From a virus (taxonomy: Duplodnaviria > Heunggongvirae > Uroviricota > Caudoviricetes): a stretch of DNA of 13,689 nucleotides. The DNA is taken from the IMG/VR virus record IMGVR_UViG_3300042898_001927. One strand, given 5' to 3'. Positions 1 through 13,688 of the stretch are shown in pieces. Positions within the stretch are counted from its first letter, which is position 1, and the number at the start of each line of letters is the position of its first letter. The notes below the pieces were generated by a model, which was not told the origin of the DNA, searched no databases, and saw nothing but the letters and a program-made list of their open reading frames with translations. The position numbers were made by a program, and so were the translations under genes.

Positions 1-1740
1 CGGTGCATCAACAGTCAAGGTAAATGTTCTGCTTGCTGTTTGAGGAATACTGTCAGTTACTGTAACTGTATAAGTGGTCTGTACTAATGTAGTAGTTGCT
101 GTGCCTGAAATAGCTCCAGTAGCTGTGTTAAATGTTAATCCAGAAGGCAATGCAGGACTTAACGCATAACTTAGTGTTCCAAATCCTCCGCTTGCTGAAA
201 TGGGGGTAAATGTTGAAGCAGCAATAAACTGTGTTAAAACCCTACCAACAAAATTTTGAGTTAGTACAATTGGGCCTGCATTGACTGTAAAGTTAAATGT
301 CTGACTGCTACTTTGTAGTGCTGAATCATTTACAGTTATAGTATATGCTTGTGTTCCACTGATAACAGTTGGAGTACCCGATATTTGTCCAGTAGTTGTA
401 CTAAATGCAACGCCTGCCGGCAATGCGGGCGCGATCGAATATGATATAGGAGCAACACCACCACTAGCTGTAACTGGAATAAATGCTGAAATAGCAGTAC
501 CCTGTGTTGCAGAATGACTTGGTACTGCTAATGTAGTTGTTAGTGCAGGAGGATCGTTTACAACTAATGTAAATGTTTTGCTGCTAGTTTGTGCTGCGGT
601 ATCTGTTACAGTAACTGTAAAAATTGTAGATTCAATAGATGCAGTCGGAGTACCTGTAATTGCACCAGTCGTGCTGTTAAAAGTTAATCCAGAAGGTAAG
701 CTAGGACTAATAGAGTATGTTAAAGGAGTGACGCCGCCGCTGGCAGTAACTGGAGTAAATGCACTAGCAGCAACATTTTTAGTTAATGTTCTACTGCTTA
801 CTGCCTGTGTTGTTGTAATGACAGGATAAATGACATTTAAACTAAATGTACTGTTGGCTGTCTGCCCCAATGTGTCGTTTACAGTTACTGTGTAGGTTGT
901 AACTGAACTAATTCCCGAAGGTGTTCCTGTAATTGCACCAGTTGTGGTACTATAAGTTAATCCAGTTGGCAATGATGGACTTACACTATAGGTCAATGTG
1001 CCCTGTCCGCCAGTAGCCGTGACAGGAGTAAATGATGTTGCTGCTGTGCCTTGAGTTAATGTTGTAGTAGGAACTGCTTGTGTTAGGCTAATTGCAGTAG
1101 GAGCATTAACCCGTAATGTAAAAGATGCGCTACCTGTTTGTCCAAGACTATCTGTTACAACAACACTGTATGTCGTTAACGGACTTGTCGTAGTCGGTGT
1201 TCCTGTAATTTGCCCGGTGCTGCTGTTAATAGTTAACCCTGCAGGAAGATCTGGGCTCACGCTATAAGTTAACGGAGCGGCACCTCCACTAGCTGTTACT
1301 GGTGTAAATGGTGTTACTGCAAAGTTTAATAATGCTGTAGTACTTGCAACTACAGTAGTAGCTGTTGGAGCAGAGACTCCAGACGGAACAGTTAGCGTAA
1401 ATGTAGCAACAGAATTTTGTCCAGCAGCATCAGTAAATGTAACAGTATAAACGGTTGTTGCTGAAAATGCAGTTGGAGTTCCAGTTAATGATAACTGTAC
1501 GTTGTTATGTTTAACAGTTGTTCCATCTGTGTTTACAAAATTAACAACTGATTTAACTGTGCTAAATGCTAGCCCGGCAGGCAATGCAGGACTAACTGCA
1601 ATATTTAATACAGGAGTTACACCAGGATTAGCTAAACTTGTACCACCAGTAGGAACTATAGCTGCGCCGCCCCTGGCATTTAAAATAATTGAATTAAAAG
1701 GTTGATTTAAGTTAGCAGTTAACGTACCATTAACTGTAAT
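1..1740 (-). repeat. Six tandem ~92-aa (~276-nt) Ig-like domain repeats
   Basis: Approximate unit boundaries are 1-273, 274-549, 550-822, 823-1098, 1099-1377 and 1378-1740 (the last unit is longer). Units end in TVDAP, TVNAG, VVNDP, NVIYP, RVNAP and TVPSG. They are diverged at the nucleotide level. Confidence 0.85.
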
Positions 1741-1938
1741 AGGAGTAATAGCAGGACAAATTACAGGTGGTACTATTCCTGTAGCTTTTGGATAAAGCAG
1801 TCTGCCCGCTGACAAGCCAGTTCCAGCTGTTGCAACAGTAATAGACCCGTTTTGGTTAACATAGAAATTGCCAACTGCAAATCTATAATCGTTAGATAGT
1901 GGTTGTGTTGCGGGATTAGGGGAGTAAAATACAGTCAC
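1..1938 (-). CDS. Tandem putative Ig-like (He_PIG/cadherin-like) repeat protein, probable virion surface/fibre protein; 3'-partial (runs off the window start)
   Basis: Manual translation gives 646 stop-free codons from GTG at 1938 (MTVFYSPNPATQPLSNDYRF...) to position 1. An in-frame TAG at 1945-1947 bounds it upstream. It contains six Thr/Ser-rich repeats with the He_PIG-type signature SGG..P(L/I)(T/S)YS.SP.LP.GL.F...TG.I(T/S)GTP....T.Y.VTV.D...Q....F.L.V. TAAATA lies 7 nt upstream. It is absent from the ORF track because it has no stop codon in the window. Confidence 0.9.
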   Translation of the reverse strand, partial: MTVFYSPNPATQPLSNDYRFAVGNFYVNQNGSITVATAGTGLSAGRLLYPKATGIVPPVICPAITPITVNGTLTANLNQPFNSIILNARGGAAIVPTGGTSLANPGVTPVLNIAVSPALPAGLAFSTVKSVVNFVNTDGTTVKHNNVQLSLTGTPTAFSATTVYTVTFTDAAGQNSVATFTLTVPSGVSAPTATTVVASTTALLNFAVTPFTPVTASGGAAPLTYSVSPDLPAGLTINSSTGQITGTPTTTSPLTTYSVVVTDSLGQTGSASFTLRVNAPTAISLTQAVPTTTLTQGTAATSFTPVTATGGQGTLTYSVSPSLPTGLTYSTTTGAITGTPSGISSVTTYTVTVNDTLGQTANSTFSLNVIYPVITTTQAVSSRTLTKNVAASAFTPVTASGGVTPLTYSISPSLPSGLTFNSTTGAITGTPTASIESTIFTVTVTDTAAQTSSKTFTLVVNDPPALTTTLAVPSHSATQGTAISAFIPVTASGGVAPISYSIAPALPAGVAFSTTTGQISGTPTVISGTQAYTITVNDSALQSSSQTFNFTVNAGPIVLTQNFVGRVLTQFIAASTFTPISASGGFGTLSYALSPALPSGLTFNTATGAISGTATTTLVQTTYTVTVTDSIPQTASRTFTLTVDAP

Positions 1939-1945
1939 GATATGC

Positions 1946-1951
1946 TATTTA
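1946..1951 (-). promoter_or_regulatory. Putative phage late promoter core TAAATA (T4 gp55-type TATAAATA-like)
   Basis: Minus strand reads TAAATA-GCATATC-GTG, 7 nt from the start codon. The same motif precedes other gene starts. Confidence 0.65.
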
Positions 1952-1953
1952 TT

Positions 1954-4900
1954 TTATGCGCGGACCGTTAGATCTAGCAGATAACCTGCTTCAACAAGAA
2001 TAAAAATACTTTGACTTCCGTCGTCCCAATAGAAGTCTCCAGGTAACATATCAGAAATTGACAACCCTAATGCAACATCTGCATTGGTAAAAAATCTAGG
2101 GGCTTTTGTGAATTGCTGTGTACTATCCCCAAATGTAATGCTACCATTAGGACCTAGTACTATACTGGCAAATGTAACGGTACTAGCAGAGTCAACTGGT
2201 TGCCCGATGGCTATAACAGATGTTGTGCCTGACCCAGTTGTTATTGTTACACCTAACCCCGGAACAAGGCTAGCAGTGTTACCCGCACTTCCAGTAAATC
2301 CTAAAGATCCGGTAAAACCTGCACTACCTGTAAAGCCATCCCCTGCACTACCTACATAACCAACACTACCTGTAAATCCAGTACTGCCTGTATAGCCAAC
2401 ACTGCCCGTATATCCTTCTGATCCAGTATAGCCAGTTGAACCAGTATAACCGGCTGATCCAGTATATCCATCATTACCTGCACTACCGGTATAACCAATG
2501 ATCTGACCTACATCATCCCAGGCGGCACCGTCCCATATCCATAGGTGCCCGTCATTCTGTGCAATGAAGCCATCACCGACGTCACCTGCATAGCTAGGAT
2601 TTAATCCTGCAGAGTTAGCTACACTGCCTACAATTTTAACAGACGTACCGGCTATACCTTGATCACCTTTAGATCCAGTATATCCTTGACCGCCAGCAGC
2701 ACCTTCGCTACCAGCGAAGCCAGCACTACCGCTAAATCCCGTAGCACCTATACTACCTGTAAATCCTGCTGATCCAGTCCATCCTATAACACCCTGCGAG
2801 CCAGTAAATCCCTGACTTCCAGTAAAACCCTGACTACCGGTGAAACCTTGACTACCAGAGTAACCCTCACTACCAGTATATCCCTGTGAGCCAGTAAAGC
2901 CTTCGCTGCCTGCATACCCGCTACTACCAGTAAAACCTTCGCTACCGGTATAACCTAAGCTACCAGTAAAACCGACACTACCTGTATATCCAGTTGAACC
3001 AGTATATCCAAGGTCGCCCTTCGATCCAGTGTAACCCAAACTACCAGTGTAACCTAAGCTACCTGTATATCCTTCACTACCAGTATAACCGGCACTACCT
3101 GCATATCCAAGACTACCTGCATATCCAAGACTACCGGTAAAGCCTTCACTGCCAGTGTAACCTAAGCTACCTGTATATCCTTCACTACCAGTAAAACCTA
3201 AACTACCAGTAAAACCTGCGCTACCTACAAATCCCGTTGCGCCTGCAATACCTTCGCTACCAGTATAGCCTACACCTTCACTACCAGTAAAACCTTGACT
3301 ACCAACGTAGCCTAAACTACCTGTATAACCCAAGGCTCCTGCTGATCCAGTATATCCTATGATTCTGCCAACGCTAGACCAACTACTACCTGACCAGATC
3401 CATAGATCGCCGGTATCATCTACAATATATCCGTCGCCGACTGCACCTGCATAACTAGGATTTAAATTAGCGGATGTGGCTACGCTGCCGACAATAGCTA
3501 CACTTGTACCGGGAGTACCTGTATCTCCCTTGCTACCTACAAAACCAACGTCACCTTGTGATCCAGTGTAACCATCTGTACCTGCACTACCAGTAAATCC
3601 TGTGCTACCTGCATAGCCCGTGTCACCTTGTGATCCAGTATAACCTTGATCACCTTGACTACCTACAAATCCAGTGTCACCTTGACTACCAGTAAATCCT
3701 TGACTTCCAGCGTAACCTTCGCTACCTACGTAACCGACATCGCCCTGACTACCTGTAAATCCTTGAAGGCCTTGTGATCCTGTGTAGCCAGCGCTACCTG
3801 TATAACCTTCACTGCCTGCATAACCAGCACTACCAGTAAAACCTTCGCTACCTGTGTAGCCATCAACACCGGCAGATCCGGTGAATCCAGCAAAGCCCTG
3901 GCTACCAGTAAATCCTGTATCGCCCTGGCTACCAGTATAGCCTTCAGAGCCATCATATCCGTTAATGCCTTGGCTACCAGTAAATCCTGTATCGCCCTGG
4001 CTACCAGTATAGCCTTCTGAGCCATCATATCCGTTAATGCCCTGACTACCTGTAAATCCTTGTAATCCTTGTGACCCTGTGTAACCATCTATCCCCGCAC
4101 TGCCAACAAATCCAGCATCGCCTTGACTTCCTGTATAGCCAACACCTTGACTACCAGTGTAACCCTTATCGCCTTGACTTCCTGTATAGCCCTGACTACC
4201 TGTGTATCCAATAACGGTTCCGACATCGTTCCAGATTGCTCCGGTCCATATCCAAAGATGCCCAGTATTAGCTGCAATGTATCCGTCACCTATTGATCCC
4301 AAATAGGGTGTTGGCAATAAGGTAGAATTCGAAACTGTTCCTACGATAACAACACTTGTACCCGGGGTTCCCTGTTCGCCTTGGCTACCAGTATAACCTT
4401 CGCTGCCGGCGTATCCAGTGTCGCCCTGACTGCCAGAATATCCCTGTGATCCAGTGTAACCTTCACTTCCGTGATAGCCTTGTGATCCAGTGTAACCTTC
4501 ACTTCCGGTGTATCCAATATCGCCTTGACTGCCAGTATAGCCGCCTATACCAGAACTGCCAGTATAACCTTGATCTCCTTGACTACCAGTGTATCCGTCA
4601 GTACCTGCACTGCCCACATAACCGGTATCACCCTGACTGCCAGTGTATCCAACTGAGCCTGCATATCCTTGCGAGCCAGTGTGTCCATGATCACCTCGAC
4701 TACCGACATAACCAGTATCTCCCTGTGATCCGGTATAGCCAACACTTCCGTCATATCCTCGATCCCCGGCACTACCCGCATACCCGATATCACCTTGACT
4801 ACCAGTGTAGCCAGCGCTGCCATCGTAACCTTGTGATCCAGCGTAACCTTGACTACCGGAATACCCCTGACTACCAGTGTAGCCAACACTGCCGTCGTAT

Positions 4901-5319
4901 CCCTGTGAGCCGGTGTAACCCTGACTACCGGTGTAACCTTCACTGCCTACATAGCCTGCGCCTGCACTACCAGTAAATCCTGCGCTGCCAGTATATCCTA
5001 TAGGTCCCTGTATTCTGCCTACGTTTATCCAACTAGAGCCGTTCCATACCCATAAGTCACCGGTATCTTCTGCAATAAAACCGTCGCCCGTAGCACCTGC
5101 GTAGATGGGATTTAGTAGGCTAGAATCAGCAACACTGCCTACAATAGTAACGCCGCCGCCAGATCCGCCAAATTGCAGAAGTCTGCCACCGGGTGTTACA
5201 TCGTCACCTATGCGTAAATCACCTAGTACTTCGTCGTACCAAATTGTACCGGTTGGACCAACCCATGTCGAGGACTCAACAGTTATTATTCTACCGGCTT
5301 GGATTTTATAGATTGGCAT
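1954..5319 (-). CDS. Collagen-like (Gly-X-Y) fibre protein, probable tail/whisker fibre, 1121 aa
   Basis: The N-terminal G..G.IWYD...GDLRIGD.VTPGG motif resembles phage fibre attachment domains (Mtd N-terminal-like). There are four Gly-X-Y tracts dominated by G(Y/F)T-GS(Q/A/E/L). Four copies of a ~48-aa domain containing GDG(Y/F)I....G.LW.W.G..W..VG.I interrupt the tracts. A short C-terminal globular region follows. ATG is preceded by TAAATA and the gene ends in TAA. Confidence 0.9.
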   Translation of the reverse strand: MPIYKIQAGRIITVESSTWVGPTGTIWYDEVLGDLRIGDDVTPGGRLLQFGGSGGGVTIVGSVADSSLLNPIYAGATGDGFIAEDTGDLWVWNGSSWINVGRIQGPIGYTGSAGFTGSAGAGYVGSEGYTGSQGYTGSQGYDGSVGYTGSQGYSGSQGYAGSQGYDGSAGYTGSQGDIGYAGSAGDRGYDGSVGYTGSQGDTGYVGSRGDHGHTGSQGYAGSVGYTGSQGDTGYVGSAGTDGYTGSQGDQGYTGSSGIGGYTGSQGDIGYTGSEGYTGSQGYHGSEGYTGSQGYSGSQGDTGYAGSEGYTGSQGEQGTPGTSVVIVGTVSNSTLLPTPYLGSIGDGYIAANTGHLWIWTGAIWNDVGTVIGYTGSQGYTGSQGDKGYTGSQGVGYTGSQGDAGFVGSAGIDGYTGSQGLQGFTGSQGINGYDGSEGYTGSQGDTGFTGSQGINGYDGSEGYTGSQGDTGFTGSQGFAGFTGSAGVDGYTGSEGFTGSAGYAGSEGYTGSAGYTGSQGLQGFTGSQGDVGYVGSEGYAGSQGFTGSQGDTGFVGSQGDQGYTGSQGDTGYAGSTGFTGSAGTDGYTGSQGDVGFVGSKGDTGTPGTSVAIVGSVATSANLNPSYAGAVGDGYIVDDTGDLWIWSGSSWSSVGRIIGYTGSAGALGYTGSLGYVGSQGFTGSEGVGYTGSEGIAGATGFVGSAGFTGSLGFTGSEGYTGSLGYTGSEGFTGSLGYAGSLGYAGSAGYTGSEGYTGSLGYTGSLGYTGSKGDLGYTGSTGYTGSVGFTGSLGYTGSEGFTGSSGYAGSEGFTGSQGYTGSEGYSGSQGFTGSQGFTGSQGFTGSQGVIGWTGSAGFTGSIGATGFSGSAGFAGSEGAAGGQGYTGSKGDQGIAGTSVKIVGSVANSAGLNPSYAGDVGDGFIAQNDGHLWIWDGAAWDDVGQIIGYTGSAGNDGYTGSAGYTGSTGYTGSEGYTGSVGYTGSTGFTGSVGYVGSAGDGFTGSAGFTGSLGFTGSAGNTASLVPGLGVTITTGSGTTSVIAIGQPVDSASTVTFASIVLGPNGSITFGDSTQQFTKAPRFFTNADVALGLSISDMLPGDFYWDDGSQSIFILVEAGYLLDLTVRA
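2280..5007 (-). repeat. Four Gly-X-Y tracts (approx. 4360-5007, 3508-4209, 2647-3357, 2280-2496)
   Basis: Hand count gives about 72, 78, 79 and 24 triplets. Gly occupies every third position except at one Gly-X-Gly step in each tract. Confidence 0.9.
2497..5151 (-). repeat. Four dispersed copies of a ~48-aa Trp-containing collagen-interrupting domain (approx. 5008-5151, 4210-4359, 3358-3507, 2497-2646)
   Basis: The copies read VTIVGSVADSSLLNPIYAGATGDGFIAEDTGDLWVWNGSSWINVGRIQ, VVIVGTVSNSTLLPTPYLGSIGDGYIAANTGHLWIWTGAIWNDVGTVI, VAIVGSVATSANLNPSYAGAVGDGYIVDDTGDLWIWSGSSWSSVGRII and VKIVGSVANSAGLNPSYAGDVGDGFIAQNDGHLWIWDGAAWDDVGQII. Confidence 0.9.
3899..4042. repeat. Near-perfect 72-nt tandem duplication within the collagen gene
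   Basis: 3899-3970 and 3971-4042 are identical at 70 of 72 positions. The duplication encodes QGINGYDGSEGYTGSQGDTGFTGS twice. Confidence 0.9.
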
Positions 5320-5340: not shown

Positions 5341-5628
5341 TTATCTTGACATTAATGCTCTTAGTTGTTGTATAATGTCGTTTTGCTCAGGAGGTTCTTC
5401 GCCCACTGTTTCCTGTCCAGTTAGTTTGTCTATAACAGGGCTATCTTTGCCCGCTTCGGCTTTAGCAAGTTCTAATTCTTGCTGTTGTGGGCTGATCATT
5501 ACAGGATTTTGCTGTAATTCTGTGTCAGCTTCGGGCTCTGTTTGCCCAGCAGCATTGACTACAGGATCTTCATCACCATTAATTGTAATGGTAATAGGTA
5601 CATTAATGGTGAATTCTTTTGCTCTCAT
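5341..5628 (-). CDS. Small acidic hypothetical protein (95 aa), possibly virion-internal
   Basis: ATG lies 4 nt after TAAATA, the gene ends in TAA, and it fits the gap between neighbours without overlap. It is Glu/Asp/Gln/Pro-rich and begins MRAKEFT. No domain is recognised. Confidence 0.75.
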   Translation of the reverse strand: MRAKEFTINVPITITINGDEDPVVNAAGQTEPEADTELQQNPVMISPQQQELELAKAEAGKDSPVIDKLTGQETVGEEPPEQNDIIQQLRALMSR

Positions 5629-5632
5629 GATG

Positions 5633-5638
5633 TATTTA
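5633..5638 (-). promoter_or_regulatory. Putative late promoter core TAAATA
   Basis: Minus strand reads TAAATA-CATC-ATG, 4 nt before the start at 5628. Confidence 0.7.
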
Positions 5639-5676
5639 GTGCCAGTTACTTTATCTGGCAGCTGAATTTATTATGG

Positions 5677-5761
5677 CTCAGCAGTGTAATTACGCCGGCA
5701 ATTTACGTTTGCTAGACGGACGCCTGCCCGGTGGGCTAACCGTTACGACAACGGCCCTAAG
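5677..5761 (-). ncRNA. Candidate structured RNA of unassigned family (multi-way junction)
   Basis: It sits in the only long intergenic gap. Four back-to-back hairpins (5738-5756, 5726-5736, 5714-5725, 5698-5712) are enclosed by a possible 5-bp closing stem CUUAG/CUGAG. Several pairs are G-U and form only on the minus strand. It was folded by eye only. Confidence 0.45.
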
Positions 5762-5775
5762 GTTAGGATTCTGTT

Positions 5776-6219
5776 TTATTGGCACCAACTTTGTTTTGCA
5801 TCGCCGTAATATTCACGTGCTAAACCGTTGGCAATTAATCCTTGACGAATGCTCTGTCCATTGACCAAGATATCTCCTAGAATACGACCACCAAACTTGT
5901 CCCAACCGTAGATGATAACTTGGTGTTTAGGATGGGATTGAATGGCCTGAGTGGTGAATTTGCTGGCCACTAATGCTCGCTCGTTTTCTTGCGGGCATTG
6001 TGCTCTGTGTCCTTTTTCCGGAGTATCAACTCCGAATATACGAACTGCCAGTTCTGGCTTGAGTGGAGCAGGGAGGAATGGTGCTGCGATAACAATGGTG
6101 TCACCATCACTTACACGGATGATTTTAGCGTCATATGTTGCCGAGTTTTTTGGCATCTTTTGTGCTAGGGCAGGTACTGCTGCGGCAGCAATTAATAGGG
6201 TTAATAATAGTTTTTTCAT
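5776..6219 (-). CDS. Staphylococcal nuclease-like (SNase/thermonuclease) protein with N-terminal Sec signal peptide
   Basis: SNase catalytic motifs are present: VSDGDTI (Asp19/Asp21 equivalents), VRIFGVDTPE (Arg35/Asp40/Glu43) and DKFGGRIL (Asp83/Arg87 region). The N-terminus MKK-LLLTLLIAAAAVP-ALA has a basic start, a hydrophobic core and an A-X-A cleavage site (6163-6219). Confidence 0.9.
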   Translation of the reverse strand: MKKLLLTLLIAAAAVPALAQKMPKNSATYDAKIIRVSDGDTIVIAAPFLPAPLKPELAVRIFGVDTPEKGHRAQCPQENERALVASKFTTQAIQSHPKHQVIIYGWDKFGGRILGDILVNGQSIRQGLIANGLAREYYGDAKQSWCQ

Positions 6220-7049: not shown

Positions 7050-7055
7050 TATTTA
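7050..7055 (-). promoter_or_regulatory. Putative late promoter core TAAATA overlapping the desaturase stop codon
   Basis: Minus strand reads TAA(stop)ATA-TATACT-ATG. The TAA at 7053-7055 serves as both the desaturase stop and the first half of TAAATA, 6 nt before the start at 7043. Confidence 0.65.
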
Positions 7056-7757
7056 ACTCTTTAACTTGGCTAAACCTAAAAACTCTAGCCCTTTAATGTA
7101 CATCCAACCTATGTCAAATTCCCACCACTTCTGACTAAACTTAGGATTTGCGATATCTGCATGGTGATTGTTGTGCAATTCTTCCCCGCCTATCCATATG
7201 CCCCACGGCATTAGATTTTTACTCTTATCTTTGGTGTCAGTGTTGCGATATCCCCACCAATGGCCCATTCCGTTGATAAAACCAGCAGCCCAGAATGGAA
7301 TCCATATCATCTGAACACCCCACACTAGAAATCCCCACCAACCGAATAACAATACGTCTATAACCAACATTACGAGAATACCCAGTCGATGATGTGGTGT
7401 ATAAAGTTTACGTTCAATCCAATCTTTGGGAGTACCCATACCGTATTTCATAACCATGTCAGCATCACTGCCTGCACGATTGTAATACTTAACACCACCA
7501 AATACCAAGTTCCATATGCCGTATACATGTGGACTATGCGGGTCGCCTTCAACGTCTGTATTCTGATGATGCTTTCGATGGATGGCCACCCATTGCTTAG
7601 TAGTCATACCTGTAGTGAGCCATAGCCAAAAACGCATAGCGTGTGCTAATACTGGGTGAAACTCAACACCCCTATGACTTTGACTACGATGTAGATATAG
7701 TGTTACTGACACTATGGTCAAGTGTGTTGCTATGAGTATGAATAAGATTTCCGTCAT
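7053..7757 (-). CDS. desA: Membrane-bound delta-9-type fatty acid (acyl-lipid/acyl-CoA) desaturase, proteobacterial DesA-like, compact 234-aa form
   Basis: All three histidine boxes are present: HRSQSH (23-28), HRKHH (60-64) and HNNHH (195-199). It also carries NGMGH, DPHSP, GGEELHNNHH and KWWEFDIGW motifs and hydrophobic membrane segments. The symbol follows the Pseudomonas/proteobacterial usage of desA. Confidence 0.93.
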   Translation of the reverse strand: MTEILFILIATHLTIVSVTLYLHRSQSHRGVEFHPVLAHAMRFWLWLTTGMTTKQWVAIHRKHHQNTDVEGDPHSPHVYGIWNLVFGGVKYYNRAGSDADMVMKYGMGTPKDWIERKLYTPHHRLGILVMLVIDVLLFGWWGFLVWGVQMIWIPFWAAGFINGMGHWWGYRNTDTKDKSKNLMPWGIWIGGEELHNNHHADIANPKFSQKWWEFDIGWMYIKGLEFLGLAKLKS

Positions 7758-9041: not shown

Positions 9042-9045
9042 TCCT
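9042..9045 (-). promoter_or_regulatory. Shine-Dalgarno site (AGGA) overlapping the upstream stop codon
   Basis: Minus strand reads TAAGGA-CCAACA-ATG(9035). This is the only clear SD among the gene starts visible in the window. Confidence 0.65.
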
Positions 9046-12000
9046 TAAGGGTTGTTGACGGAAATGTCAGCACCAGCTACCATCCAGATATCACCGTGGT
9101 CGTCAGCATCATCTGACTCAGTGCCTTCTTTGATCTTAATCAAGGTAATCATTTGTCCACTACCGTTGTCAGCAAAACTAATATTAGCAGTTTTGTCATC
9201 ACCACCTGAGAACCACATTTGACCTTCAAGGTTGTCACTTGATTCACAGGTCACATAAGCATCATTGCCACTGATGTTGACGATAGTTACAGTATACCCA
9301 ACTGGTAGTGAGACTTTTTGCCAGTTAGGAATAATCACCTCATAGTTGCTGTCTTCAATAAGAATATGTCTGCCTGAGTCTTCTGGTTTCAGTGTATAAC
9401 CACCAGCACTGATCCGCACCTGTGGCACAATGGCTGTGCTGAATGTCTGACGACTACCATCAGCAAACTCAATGGCACCGCCCTCATTGCTCAGGATGGT
9501 CTGTGGATAGAATGTGAATTCTTCGTTAGGATAGTCAGTGTAGTAATGTTTGATGTTGTCCACCGCAGTAATACTGCTAGACTGAACTGTGGCAGTAAAT
9601 GTGGTTGCTGTGTTACCACTTAGACGCCAAACTTTGATTCGGTCATCGTTGGGTTCCACATACTTCCATAGGCCGTGCTCTCCCAGTCCTGTGCCGTCTA
9701 ATGGCAGTGTAACTATAAACGCATTGTCCGTGTCATCATCTGGAGCATCAGTGTAGCCTACCAATGTAAACTGGTCGCCATGTATGCTCAGCGCCCGGTT
9801 GCCATTGCTTTCATAACACATCTGAGTGTCGCTTTCGTAAACACCCCACATACGCTTCCATATGAATTCACCGTCAGTGTCTAACTTGACAATCGCAATG
9901 GCCTGATCATCAAAAAACTCAAAGTCATCGTCGAATTCCCACGCAATTACTATCTCATCTGTGGCAGGATCAACTGCTACACTGATGTTGCTTTCTGGAC
10001 TATACCAACTGCCACCATTGCTGGATCCAATACCAATAAACTGTTGCCATATGATGTTTAAGTTGCTGTCCAACTTGGTGACTAATACTTCGTCAGTCTC
10101 ATCTCTTCCATCGTTATACATTTCATGAACTACAACAATACTGTCGTTAGCCATCAGAGCCACTGCACCGCTGTAGGCGTTGTTCTCACCCATGTTGTTG
10201 TTGACAAACTTGCTGGCCACGATTGTGCCTGTGCTGGAATACTTGACTACTAGGGCTTGGTCATAGTTGACTTCATATTGTCCTTGACCCACGGCATACA
10301 AGTGTGTGCCAGCGGCATTCCACGCTACTCCACTGAATTGGTCATTGCTTGCGCCGCCAATAACTGGCGTCATGTCTGGTGTCCAAACAAATGCCTCACC
10401 ACCCAAGTTCTGTTTGATGGCAAATGTTGTGCCGGTTGCGGCATAGTCAACAGTGTCATTGGTTGCTATCTGTAGGTGTGTTGTTGAATGTGTACCACTA
10501 AAGTTTAAAGTCTCTAATGCTGTACCGCTCACAGAACTGGCTGTAACAATGAGGTTGTTGGTAGATGTTGTTCCACCAGCAAAATTTGTTCCCAGAATAG
10601 TAATGACATCACCCACTACATAGTTTGTTCCAGCACTAGACCAACTGCCGTTATCAACAGCACCAGTAGTAGCATCAAAGTATATAAAAAATACTGCTCC
10701 ACTACCTGTATTGTAGTTTGTGCCTGATACCGCAGTAGCAGTAGCACTAGAGATTCCAGTGGCTGTTCCTACATTGCTTACACTGCTAATAACACCTGCT
10801 TCTACAGCATCTACTGTAATGATGATGTCGTTGGCTGGTGTTGCTCCAGTACCGTAAGTGCCATCGCTCACAGTAATACTGTAGAGGCTTGTACCGCTAG
10901 TTCCAAAGAAACTAAGATCACCAACCTCATACAGTGCGTTCCCTTCAAATTCTCCAACAGTAACCACACTAGTTGATGTAGTCATACCACCGTACACAAG
11001 TGTAAGCGTTGTTCCTGTGGTTATTAATGATATAATACTTGTAAGTGCGGAGTCAACGCCTACATACCAAGGAGCAAAAATACCACCGGTACCAGCAAAA
11101 TTTACTTGTCCAGCTGTATATTCAGCACCCTCAGTAAATGTGGTAGTATTCTCAGCACCAGTTAAACTTGTACCTAAAATCTTGATCTTGTGTCCTGGTA
11201 GATAGTTGGTATTGGCCGACGCGGTCAAGCCAACACTATAAGTTCCATTACCGTTGTTGATGATGTTAAACGTAGCACCACTACCTTGTTGTAATGTGCC
11301 AGTTAGACCTTCATAATAGTTTACACTCGTAACCTGTGCTTGGTCAGTGATACCAGTGCCGATAATCCACCAGTCACCACTACTGCTGCCGCCCGGAATA
11401 CTTTCGCCTGGGAAGTGTTCAGTGTCGATGTCTGCCTTGGTAACCCATAGTTTATCTACCGCACTGCCCGCCAATGGAGTAATAGTACCGTATTCTGCGT
11501 ATTCGTTAAACTTTTCACCAACTACAGCAATCTTACCAGTTGAACTGATGTCAATATCATAAGCGTAGATATCTCCCTCGTCTTGTAAGGTAGTTGTGCT
11601 GACCACTGTGCCTGACCCCGAATCAATGGTCAGTATCACTGTTTCTGTCCAGCCACTGTCAAGACTATCACCCATTGACGTTGGAGTTGTAACAACCACA
11701 ACAATGTTGCCAGACACAGGATTGTAGGCCATTGACCTTATTTCGCAATCTGCGTTGTCATTAAAGTCTTGAACAGTGGTATATGTATCTGAAAGGCCGG
11801 TCGCACCTACACCGCTCACAATGGTAACTGTGTCCACTTCTCCAACATAGTCAGTGCCATTGAGTATAGAGGCCACTTCTAACACTAATGTATTGCTGGC
11901 ATTGCCTCCAAGATCGTCTCCGTCAATAAGTATCCTATCACCTACTTTATAGCCATTGCCGCCGTTGGTCACTGTGGGAGTAGCATAAGTGCCGGTAGTG

Positions 12001-13688
12001 ACAACAACAGTAAACTGTGCCCCGTCGCCACTAAATAGTTCTCGCTGCCATACTACTGCACCTTCTGGTGTGAATTTGTAAATGTGAGCACGATTGCCTT
12101 CCCAGTCGTCACTACCTATAACATAGGCAAATCCTTCTGCGTCGTGACATACACTTTCAAACCAAATGTCCTCGCTATCGTTAGGGAACAAGCCATACAT
12201 TGTGGCATAACCCAACTGACGTTGTTGCAGGCGAATGTCAGCATCTGCTGGTGCTGTAAATGTGCCGTCTTTGCCAAATGTCCAAGTGTTAACCTTGCTG
12301 GATGTGCGTCTTACGCTGATACCCACTGCCTGTGTGACAATGCCAGCTGAGCCTTCTTCGGTCATGGCAATATCAGTTTGTAATGCTGTTGGACCGTTGA
12401 CTGCCACTAACGTGTTGGTCAATCTACCCGGAATACGGCTTGTTGACAGTGACCAACCTTCTGCTGACCACGCTGTGGCCGCAGTATCAAACTGTGCTAG
12501 GAAGCCTTGAGTAAAATAATCTTCATCGGTGCCAGGTGTTTCGTCTACAATGTCTGGGCCACTTGCTCCCAGTCTAACCGCGCCACCAATAAGTATCTTG
12601 TCTCCCTGCACTGATATATTATCGGCCACACTGTCATTCCAAGGAGCATCATTGACATCACCTGGAATTTCTTGTGAGTTGGGATTGTCAAAATAACTCT
12701 GCCATACCACAGCACCTGTGGTTTTGTTGTATCGGGCTAGAGCCAATGTAGCATTCCAATATCCTAAACTTGAATCTGCTTGACCTGCTGATTTTCTTTG
12801 ATAAGTGCTGGCCAACAGGTATAAGTCGCCATCGTCACCTACCGCTGTGCTGACACCTACCCAATCACATTGTCCCGGACCAACTCTACGATCCCACACT
12901 ATCGCACCCAGTGTGGTCATTTTGAATAAGAAAACAGCATTGCTTTTCTTGGAGTTGGGGCCGCCACCGCTGAAACTATCTGATTCTGCGTTGTCAACAT
13001 AGTAGGTGCCAGTAACATAACTGTTGCCCACGCTGTCAAGGCTGACATTAAAAGCACCGCCTTGAGGTGTTTCGCTGTCAAGTCTCACTGACTTTTGCCA
13101 ACTCGATCCGCCCGACGCAGTGATTTTTGCCACTAATATTTCTGAATCAGTTTCTGTGGCACCGTTGACTGTGTGTTCAACTTCTGCGCCACCTACCGCA
13201 ATGATGTCGTTGTTAAAATCAACTGCCACTGAAGCAATGGCTGAGAAGCCGCTGTCAACTGTCAAGGACTTTTGCCAAGTGATGTCAGTGGCAGTGGGGT
13301 TCAATTTGGCCACAAACCCTGTGGTTTCGCCGCTGCTAGGAAAGAAAAAATCACCACCAATGATGATGTTGTTGTTGCTGTCAACTGCCATAGCTCTAAT
13401 ATTAAAATCTTCAGTAAACGCTAATTCTTCACTGAATATAACAGCGCCGGTACTACCATTGATTTTGACAATATTTTTAAGTTGTGTATCATCTGGATTC
13501 ACAGCAAGTAAGATGTTGTCATCACTGTCAACCACAGCATTGCTTTCTGGATAGCGGCTATTGTCAACAGCACCTATGCTCTTCTTCCAAACTAATTCGC
13601 CTGCGGATGTGAACTTGGCAACTACTACTCCATCATCGCTATAGAGTTCAATTCGACCAACAACAATGGCATTGCCCTCACTGTCGTA
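9045..13688 (-). CDS. Very large beta-propeller-repeat virion/tail-fibre-like protein; 5'-partial (>1548 aa)
   Basis: The frame stays open beyond the ORF-track GTG at 13535 to the window edge (YDSEGNAIVVGRIELYSDDGVVVAKFTSAGELVWKKSIG...), so the true start lies outside the window. Blade motifs recur ((D/N)SxGN..V.G and (V/L)xK(F/L)...G...W(Q/K)(R/K)). There are three (G/T)NxYxxG(D/H)xIxIxGxxLxG....N.(L/I)...V modules. The C-terminal YTL.PEDSGRHILI....IIP....V.LPVGY.VTIVN...W.VAG domain is of a type common at phage fibre ends. Confidence 0.88.
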   Translation of the reverse strand, partial: YDSEGNAIVVGRIELYSDDGVVVAKFTSAGELVWKKSIGAVDNSRYPESNAVVDSDDNILLAVNPDDTQLKNIVKINGSTGAVIFSEELAFTEDFNIRAMAVDSNNNIIIGGDFFFPSSGETTGFVAKLNPTATDITWQKSLTVDSGFSAIASVAVDFNNDIIAVGGAEVEHTVNGATETDSEILVAKITASGGSSWQKSVRLDSETPQGGAFNVSLDSVGNSYVTGTYYVDNAESDSFSGGGPNSKKSNAVFLFKMTTLGAIVWDRRVGPGQCDWVGVSTAVGDDGDLYLLASTYQRKSAGQADSSLGYWNATLALARYNKTTGAVVWQSYFDNPNSQEIPGDVNDAPWNDSVADNISVQGDKILIGGAVRLGASGPDIVDETPGTDEDYFTQGFLAQFDTAATAWSAEGWSLSTSRIPGRLTNTLVAVNGPTALQTDIAMTEEGSAGIVTQAVGISVRRTSSKVNTWTFGKDGTFTAPADADIRLQQRQLGYATMYGLFPNDSEDIWFESVCHDAEGFAYVIGSDDWEGNRAHIYKFTPEGAVVWQRELFSGDGAQFTVVVTTGTYATPTVTNGGNGYKVGDRILIDGDDLGGNASNTLVLEVASILNGTDYVGEVDTVTIVSGVGATGLSDTYTTVQDFNDNADCEIRSMAYNPVSGNIVVVVTTPTSMGDSLDSGWTETVILTIDSGSGTVVSTTTLQDEGDIYAYDIDISSTGKIAVVGEKFNEYAEYGTITPLAGSAVDKLWVTKADIDTEHFPGESIPGGSSSGDWWIIGTGITDQAQVTSVNYYEGLTGTLQQGSGATFNIINNGNGTYSVGLTASANTNYLPGHKIKILGTSLTGAENTTTFTEGAEYTAGQVNFAGTGGIFAPWYVGVDSALTSIISLITTGTTLTLVYGGMTTSTSVVTVGEFEGNALYEVGDLSFFGTSGTSLYSITVSDGTYGTGATPANDIIITVDAVEAGVISSVSNVGTATGISSATATAVSGTNYNTGSGAVFFIYFDATTGAVDNGSWSSAGTNYVVGDVITILGTNFAGGTTSTNNLIVTASSVSGTALETLNFSGTHSTTHLQIATNDTVDYAATGTTFAIKQNLGGEAFVWTPDMTPVIGGASNDQFSGVAWNAAGTHLYAVGQGQYEVNYDQALVVKYSSTGTIVASKFVNNNMGENNAYSGAVALMANDSIVVVHEMYNDGRDETDEVLVTKLDSNLNIIWQQFIGIGSSNGGSWYSPESNISVAVDPATDEIVIAWEFDDDFEFFDDQAIAIVKLDTDGEFIWKRMWGVYESDTQMCYESNGNRALSIHGDQFTLVGYTDAPDDDTDNAFIVTLPLDGTGLGEHGLWKYVEPNDDRIKVWRLSGNTATTFTATVQSSSITAVDNIKHYYTDYPNEEFTFYPQTILSNEGGAIEFADGSRQTFSTAIVPQVRISAGGYTLKPEDSGRHILIEDSNYEVIIPNWQKVSLPVGYTVTIVNISGNDAYVTCESSDNLEGQMWFSGGDDKTANISFADNGSGQMITLIKIKEGTESDDADDHGDIWMVAGADISVNNP

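Follow-up and report, generated by a model that had tools for sequence, protein, structure and literature searches.

A single-copy phage RNA family with complementarity to the helix 69 region of 23S rRNA

Downstream of the tRNA genes of bacteriophage T4 are the genes for two stable RNAs to which no function has been assigned (PMC3014915; PMC9697503), and these have been classed as late RNAs (PMC9697503). RNA D of T4 (species 2 RNA; AF158101, 71053-71171) begins one base after tRNA-Arg, and its homologues detected by blastn were found in the Tevenvirinae only. The CopA/CopT system of plasmid R1 and the RNA I/RNA II system of ColE1 work with loop-presenting antisense RNAs, and trans-acting small RNAs carry a 5' seed. 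Guide RNAs complementary to rRNA occur in eukaryotes and archaea as the C/D and H/ACA snoRNAs. To our knowledge, bacteria have no guide system of the C/D or H/ACA type, and we know of no phage or bacterial RNA that works through pairing with rRNA.

The RNA described here is encoded in a 13,689-nt stretch of phage DNA (the window; IMG/VR record IMGVR_UViG_3300042898_001927). Like CopA and RNA I, it has a short conserved complement in a hairpin loop with a YUNR-like turn, and further complementarity is hidden in stems and could zip up after contact. One subtype of the family ends in a hairpin and a U-run, as antisense and small RNAs do. Unlike CopA and RNA I, the presumed target is rRNA and not an mRNA or a replication primer, and the RNA is carried by many phage lineages. 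Complementarity of 10-20 nt to a conserved, central and heavily modified rRNA site is shared with the snoRNA guides, from which the family differs in that it lacks conserved boxes of the C/D or H/ACA type; only a few subtype C members contain UGAUGA-like words. The literature was searched for phage RNAs with complementarity to 23S rRNA or helix 69 without a relevant result, and neither Rfam nor the literature searched contains the family. A catalogue of 10,006 covarying candidate RNAs from IMG/VR includes some upstream of capsid and terminase genes (PMC10690425). Its text names no rRNA link, and the family may be among its unnamed candidates.

The locus and the RNA family

The long ORFs of the window are all encoded on the minus strand. 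Between the main ones the gaps measure 3-21 nt, apart from one of 147 nt between an SNase-like nuclease ORF (5776-6219; Pfam SNase, E 4e-9) and a 95-aa ORF (5341-5628). The first-pass annotation of the window, made from its letters alone, had noted that this gap stood out from others of 21 nt or shorter, and had proposed a compact RNA with a multi-way junction at 5677-5761; the gap lengths were borne out, and the sequence and coordinates were correct on re-check. The closest relatives of the window are fragments that CheckV rates as 18% (64 kb) and 58% (208 kb) complete, from which its phage has a genome of about 350 kb and is a jumbo phage. Elsewhere in the window, collagen triple-helix repeats make up about 8 segments of a 1121-aa protein (1954-5319, minus strand; Pfam Collagen, E 6e-104), which matches many PHROG tail-fibre families. 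A fatty-acid desaturase is encoded at 7053-7757 on the minus strand (Pfam FA_desaturase, E 3e-11), and in two related phages (L084, L086) the desaturase gene is immediately downstream of the RNA. The ORF at 9045-13688 on the minus strand, longer than 1547 aa and cut by the edge of the window, had no Pfam or PHROG match. Several gene starts in the window have TAAATA 4-7 nt ahead of the start codon, without a Shine-Dalgarno sequence.

No Rfam 15 model matched the window at the gathering score, and at E ≤ 10 the region 5500-5900 gave two noise matches only, to a snoRNA and a lncRNA. ARAGORN found neither a tRNA nor a tmRNA in the window, and a tRNA-like gene was rejected on this ground. HDV-like, hammerhead, twister and pistol ribozymes were ruled out by eye and by Rfam. 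The group I intron model RF00028 did not match the element even at E 10; the same model identified real introns elsewhere in two related loci (L113 and L120). These searches agree with the earlier statement that the sequence fits no riboswitch, ribozyme or tRNA consensus, and the accompanying idea of a ribozyme gained no supporting evidence. An intrinsic terminator or simple 3'-UTR hairpin was rejected as well, as no hairpin of the window element is followed by a U-run. A 1-kb region around the element had no blastn match among cultured phages.

Relatives were retrieved from IMG/VR in several ways. The nuclease has hundreds of relatives there, and of 80 such loci compared, two had the same intergenic sequence. 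A 24-mer of the element was present without mismatch in 12 viral contigs with at least five unrelated pairs of flanks, which share a block of ~135 nt. A degenerate 17-mer search yielded 81 loci of which ~71 were true members, and 19 and 4 more came from two anchors at other places in the RNA. The family thus comprises at least 90 IMG/VR contigs with 64 distinct versions, together with two cultured phages, Limnohabitans phage DC31 (PQ492658; 52 bits with the family model R1) and Curvibacter phage P26059A (KY981271). In DC31 the RNA is located after the last gene of an array of five tRNAs and before a small-terminase-like gene. The DC31 and L113 versions gave the same outcome with Rfam as the window, and no ribozyme or intron model matched them even at E 10. 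Among the 80 matches listed from a pattern search of bacterial genomes there was no clear family member. The versions share the 5' module AAGAACCC-ACCUUAGG-N(1-3)-CCGUU-GUCG(C)UA-AACGG-UUAG-(variable hairpin)-AGGCGUC. The 3' part differs between subtypes A to E, the window belonging to type A.

Each of the 28 true carrier records examined with R1 held one copy. The records range from ~30 kb to 355 kb and include complete genomes of 79, 163 and 355 kb. The element lies on the strand of the flanking ORFs and starts 4-25 nt past a stop codon or, in four versions, no more than 10 nt from a tRNA 3' end; a distance limit of 30 nt from a tRNA likewise takes in only 4 of the 64 versions. A gene on the same strand begins 10-80 nt after it, and this gene varies: a 95-aa ORF, a fatty-acid desaturase, a ferredoxin-NADP reductase-like protein, Hsp20, a nuclease, a small-terminase-like protein or a T7-like major capsid protein. 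One role suggested for the window element, control of the nuclease from its 3'-UTR, is unlikely because the same RNA adjoins quite different genes in other phages. The single copy and the changing neighbours favour a gene-like RNA over a repeated promoter or a general leader. Being abundant, single-copy and spread over very different phages, many of them from freshwater, the family probably has a general role. Even if the rRNA reading discussed below should fail, this is a well-supported RNA family that current annotation has missed.

Promoter-like identities were rejected. The string AACCC..TTA-GGG resembles the T3 promoter, but there is one copy per genome and no coding-strand excess of the motif; CCTTAGG has a single site in the window, not above chance. 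A repeated promoter or regulatory cassette, such as a phage RNA-polymerase promoter or a T4-type PeSL, does not agree with one R1 match per whole record. As for a sigma-70 promoter of its own, a weak A/T preference was seen upstream, without a -35 element and without a consistent -35/-10 pair.

Borders, fold and covariation

Conservation across unrelated flanks placed the borders of the RNA at ~5771 and ~5641. The shared block of ~130 nt is ~85-100% identical in at least 6 different flanking contexts, and R1 matched its 5' part (5719-5774) with 57 bits (E 3e-17). The RNA is therefore longer than the segment first proposed, and the extension adds two hairpins, P4 and P5. RNAalifold on 12 type A sequences gave six helices, P0 to P5, arranged as a row of hairpins. 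The features are as follows, all on the minus strand.

5641..5771, minus strand: whole conserved RNA of the window subtype ('type A'), ~130 nt, delimited by conservation across unrelated flanks
5755..5766, minus strand: P0, small 5' hairpin whose loop presents ACCUU(A); the stem covaries
5740..5754, minus strand: P1, hairpin CCGUU-GUCGU-AACGG ('anti-helix-69'); in other subtypes the stem is kept through changes of U-A to G-U, A-U and C-G
5726..5736, minus strand: P2, hairpin GCCC-ACC-GGGC; relatives have a variable hairpin at the same place
5693..5722, minus strand: P3, long hairpin with an internal loop (base GCG-U-CCG/CGG-CGU; tip GCAA/UUGC); the tip covaries
5686..5693, minus strand: GUAAUUAC, self-complementary 8-mer in the linker after P3
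5661..5682, minus strand: P4, hairpin GCUGA ... UCAGC; 3 of 5 pairs changed on both sides, 98% of cells pair
5641..5659, minus strand: P5, hairpin GCCAG-AUAAAGUAA-CUGGC; 3 of 5 pairs changed on both sides, 100% of cells pair

When the 12 type A relatives were scored on this fold, 97.3% of cells could pair and 11 pairs had changed on both sides, a number reached by none of 500 shuffles; slid controls dropped to 16-40% paired. The same count for the fold proposed earlier gave 92.3% and 4 two-sided changes. The window sequence folded alone was no better than its dinucleotide shuffles (minus strand, z -1.13; plus strand, z -1.47), so the support for the fold comes from relatives and not from folding energy. 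Both kinds of evidence had been named in the first-pass annotation as checks of its RNA: the comparison of folding energy with shuffles lent it no support, and homologues with covarying stems were found. Its central claim, an undescribed structured phage RNA on the sense strand, is thus upheld by covariation and by the lack of Rfam, tRNA and ribozyme matches.

The hairpins of the earlier fold that correspond to P1, P2 and the distal part of P3 were supported by relatives. The other elements of that fold were replaced. Its closing helix, CUUAG (5761-5757) with CUGAG (5681-5677), had no two-sided change, and three cells were unpaired in relatives that vary there; its 3' strand covaries instead with 5665-5661 to form P4, with which the closing helix is incompatible. 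The short hairpin AGGC/GUCU paired in 81% of cells without covariation, and its bases belong to the longer base of P3. Instead of a closed multi-way junction, the architecture is consequently one of hairpins in a row. The suggested pseudoknots (CGGC with GUCG, UUAC with GUAA) received no support, as the bases involved barely vary.

The P0 stem pair is C-G in 33, A-U in 4 and U-A in 3 versions across the family (C-G in 9 and A-U in 3 within type A), and in the window the stem has a one-base shift (CCU/AGG). The P1 loop GUCG is near-invariant, but the first search pattern imposed it; one member retrieved by another anchor has GAUGUC. At the P2 position the sequence and length vary in other members, a GNRA loop is frequent, and short subtypes have no P2. 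At the tip of P3 both partners have changed in 3 pairs (GCAA/UUGC to GUUGC/GCAAC and GUACC/GGUAC); the base of P3 never breaks and has one-sided changes only. Three type A members have GAAAUUUC in place of GUAAUUAC, which is likewise self-complementary; this palindromic linker might let the RNA dimerise or, at the DNA level, might be bound by a dimeric protein. The P5 loop (..GUAAC) is conserved in types A, C and E. P5 ends 12 nt ahead of the ATG at 5628, and ACUAAAUACAUC (5629-5640) fills the space between P5 and the start of the 95-aa ORF. In the alignment 17 G-U cells would be A-C mismatches on the opposite strand, and GNRA loops (GAAA, GUAA, GCAA) cap P2 in relatives. The G-U pairs, which had already been used to argue for the minus strand, and the GNRA loops show that the RNA strand is the sense strand of the flanking genes.

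Complementarity to 23S rRNA

Because the same bases are fixed in phages with differing translation start signals, the RNA was compared with rRNA, using E. coli rrnH as the reference and blastn-short against the E. coli rRNAs. This brought out a complementarity that the first-pass annotation had missed. The stretches of the element that are antisense to 23S rRNA are the following, the 8-mer being part of seed 1.

5756..5763, minus strand: ACCUUAGG, near-universal 8-mer, complement of 23S 1924-1931, supported by independently anchored members
5750..5763, minus strand: seed 1, ACCUUAGGGCCGUU, antisense to 23S 1918-1931 (3' strand of helix 69 and linker to helix 70), with 13 Watson-Crick pairs and one G-U pair
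5719..5733, minus strand: seed 2, CACCGGGCAGGCGUC, perfect 15-nt antisense to 23S 1828-1842 (blastn-short E 5e-4)

Some of the invariance seen at first was built into the initial search pattern, and only independently anchored samples were therefore relied on. In samples whose search anchor excluded its bases, ACCUUAGG was invariant. In two members, L094 and P26059A, the 8-mer begins with U and not A; the P1 loop of P26059A also differs. In the window the ungapped complementarity extends through the whole of P1 and corresponds to 23S 1906-1931, with a score of 47 against 29 ± 3 for shuffles, none of which reached it (0/150). An rRNA match as long as the 15-mer occurred in 4 of 6060 control tiles of phage DNA. 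The 15-mer itself is present in 7 of the 64 family versions, and the rest keep 7-9 nt of it (AGGCGUC). The two 23S matches are colinear in antisense. The 5' 45 nt of the window element approximate the reverse complement of 23S 1828-1931 minus helix 68, with P1 opposite helix 69 (1906-1924). Both target stretches are identical letter for letter in alpha- and gammaproteobacterial 23S genes. Within the RNA, part of each seed pairs with a short sequence that copies the seed's own target, so that the seeds are self-masked; for example, the 3' strand of P1, AACGGUU, resembles AACGGUC of 23S.

The family consensus has a longest perfect match that is typically the 8-mer plus 7-9 nt, and its complementarity score was reached by 5 of 150 shuffles. 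The spacer from ACCUUAGG to CCGUU is 1-3 nt long, and its variable base tracks the P0 partner and not U1923 of 23S. RNAduplex against the whole 23S rRNA gave unrealistically long duplexes, for which the z of about -3.9 is crude. Matches to 16S rRNA, of the subtype B loop with the 530 loop and of GUCGUAAC with 1494-1501, were within chance length and were rejected. The hairpin concerned, CAGGC-GGCUGCU-GCCUG, is conserved at L106 (~1531-1545, minus strand) and other subtype B loci, and includes a 10-nt complement of 16S 519-528 (530 loop) and a 9-nt complement of 349-357, both of chance-level length.

Proposed function and alternative explanations

From these comparisons we infer, with middling confidence, that the family consists of self-masked antisense RNAs whose pairing partner is the 23S rRNA of the host. 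The RNA, of which each genome encodes one copy, would be transcribed together with its neighbouring genes, on their sense strand. ACCUUAGG and the 5' strand of P1 would target domain IV of 23S rRNA at helix 69 and the linker to helix 70 (1914-1931), and AGGCGUC, extended to 15 nt in the window clade, would target 1828-1842 at the foot of helices 67/68. These antisense stretches are predicted to be masked in P0, P1 and P2/P3, with ACCUU(A) displayed in the loop of P0; its CUUA agrees with YUNR, the U-turn motif by which antisense loops are recognised. First contact with host 23S rRNA, nascent or in free 50S subunits, would be made via this exposed loop; the hairpins would then open and pairing would spread. 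Occupation of the helix 69 region may alter ribosome assembly or subunit joining late in infection. Helix 69 is the central intersubunit bridge and touches tRNAs and the release and recycling factors. If the proposal is true, an RNA aimed at helix 69 would be a new viral route to translation control, and the two laboratory-grown carriers, DC31 and P26059A, make it directly testable.

Several observations count against pairing with 23S rRNA. The complementarity of the consensus is modest, the spacer base follows P0 rather than 23S, the 8-mer begins with U in L094 and P26059A, the latter with a different P1 loop, and the seeds are mostly base-paired within the RNA. The target is structured in mature ribosomes, and helix 69 is pseudouridylated (23S 1911, 1915 and 1917). 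The match could also be a relic of rDNA descent. In addition, the terminator-like hairpin of one subtype, right before the next start codon, looks like part of a cis leader.

A cis-acting 5' leader or attenuator, which would sense a metabolite, temperature, a protein or the ribosome and control the downstream gene, would account for the same-strand gene that always follows the element within 10-80 nt. In subtype B a short hairpin and a U-run lie 10-20 nt ahead of the start codon and leave no room for another promoter, and CCUUA could pair with a downstream UAAGG Shine-Dalgarno sequence in some members. The gene downstream in the window, however, has no Shine-Dalgarno sequence to mask. With one copy per genome, unrelated downstream genes, a 3' 'platform' that is wholly different between subtypes and no match to any riboswitch model, we regard a leader as unlikely. 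A DNA-level signal, such as a packaging site, an origin, or a homing-endonuclease site or decoy resembling the I-CeuI region of 23S rDNA, would fit an element that is single-copy and intergenic and that in subtype C immediately precedes the gene for the small terminase; homing endonucleases and introns are known to cluster in the part of 23S to which the element is similar. Yet covariation keeps the helices via G-U pairs, which are A-C on the other strand, GNRA loops are present, and the same sequence occurs away from genome ends in phages with unrelated terminases and genome sizes, which makes a DNA signal very improbable. That the element is a self-cleaving ribozyme or a group I intron remnant is barely credible. 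The 5' bases may resemble an internal guide sequence for 23S 1917, with G opposite U1917, and group I introns occur elsewhere in two related loci, but a group I core would not fit into an RNA of this size, a conserved catalytic core was not apparent, and no Rfam ribozyme or intron model matched even at E 10.

The RNA might instead be a stable small RNA with another role, for example protein binding like T4 RNA C or RNA D, its likeness to 23S being a relic of captured inverted rDNA. The plus strand of 5719-5763 approximates a miniature 23S 1828-1931 with helix 68 deleted, and in a hand alignment 19 of 26 bases were identical to the helix 69 region, which suggests descent. A relic would be expected to decay; the antisense bases are the best-kept part of the RNA across very different phages, and the window clade keeps a perfect 15-mer, so that we think this explanation improbable too. 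The comparison with T4 bears on it from both sides. RNA D, like the family, has a 5' AAGAA and a hairpin with the 7-nt loop GUCGCUA, followed by UAAG and GUCGUC; GUCGUC pairs with a 3' CGGCG, and UCGCUACC is the complement of 23S 1929-1936. It is a small stable RNA and, like subtype C, is encoded directly after a tRNA. It differs in lacking P0 and ACCUUAGG as well as P2, and in ending with CACCA. With default filters R1 gave no candidates over the T4 genome. With filters off it matched the 5' end of RNA D at 7.5 bits, the fourth of 9 matches in 100 kb of T4. A second 8-mer of RNA D complementary to 23S (AAGGAAUU) was not conserved among its homologues and was attributed to chance. The link to RNA D is only suggestive, a lead and not membership; if it holds, it would be the first clue to an RNA unexplained for 50 years.

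Returning to the antisense RNA, we put forward a wider proposal tentatively. Many unrelated aquatic phages, from T7-like to 355-kb jumbo phages, may carry one self-masked RNA gene directed against helices 69-70, in the window clade also against 1828-1842, that would act directly on ribosome assembly or subunit joining, and T4 RNA D could be a reduced relative of it.

Some copies of the element have other RNA features nearby. In the complete 162,860-bp genome of IMGVR_UViG_3300027673_000001 (L127), a permuted two-piece tmRNA (936-1237, minus strand; RF04321 90 bits, alpha_tmRNA 66 bits) lies ~300 nt upstream of the RNA. In L113 a group I intron (1890-2501, plus strand; RF00028, 74 bits), located 330 nt downstream of the element, splits the gene for the T7-like major capsid protein.
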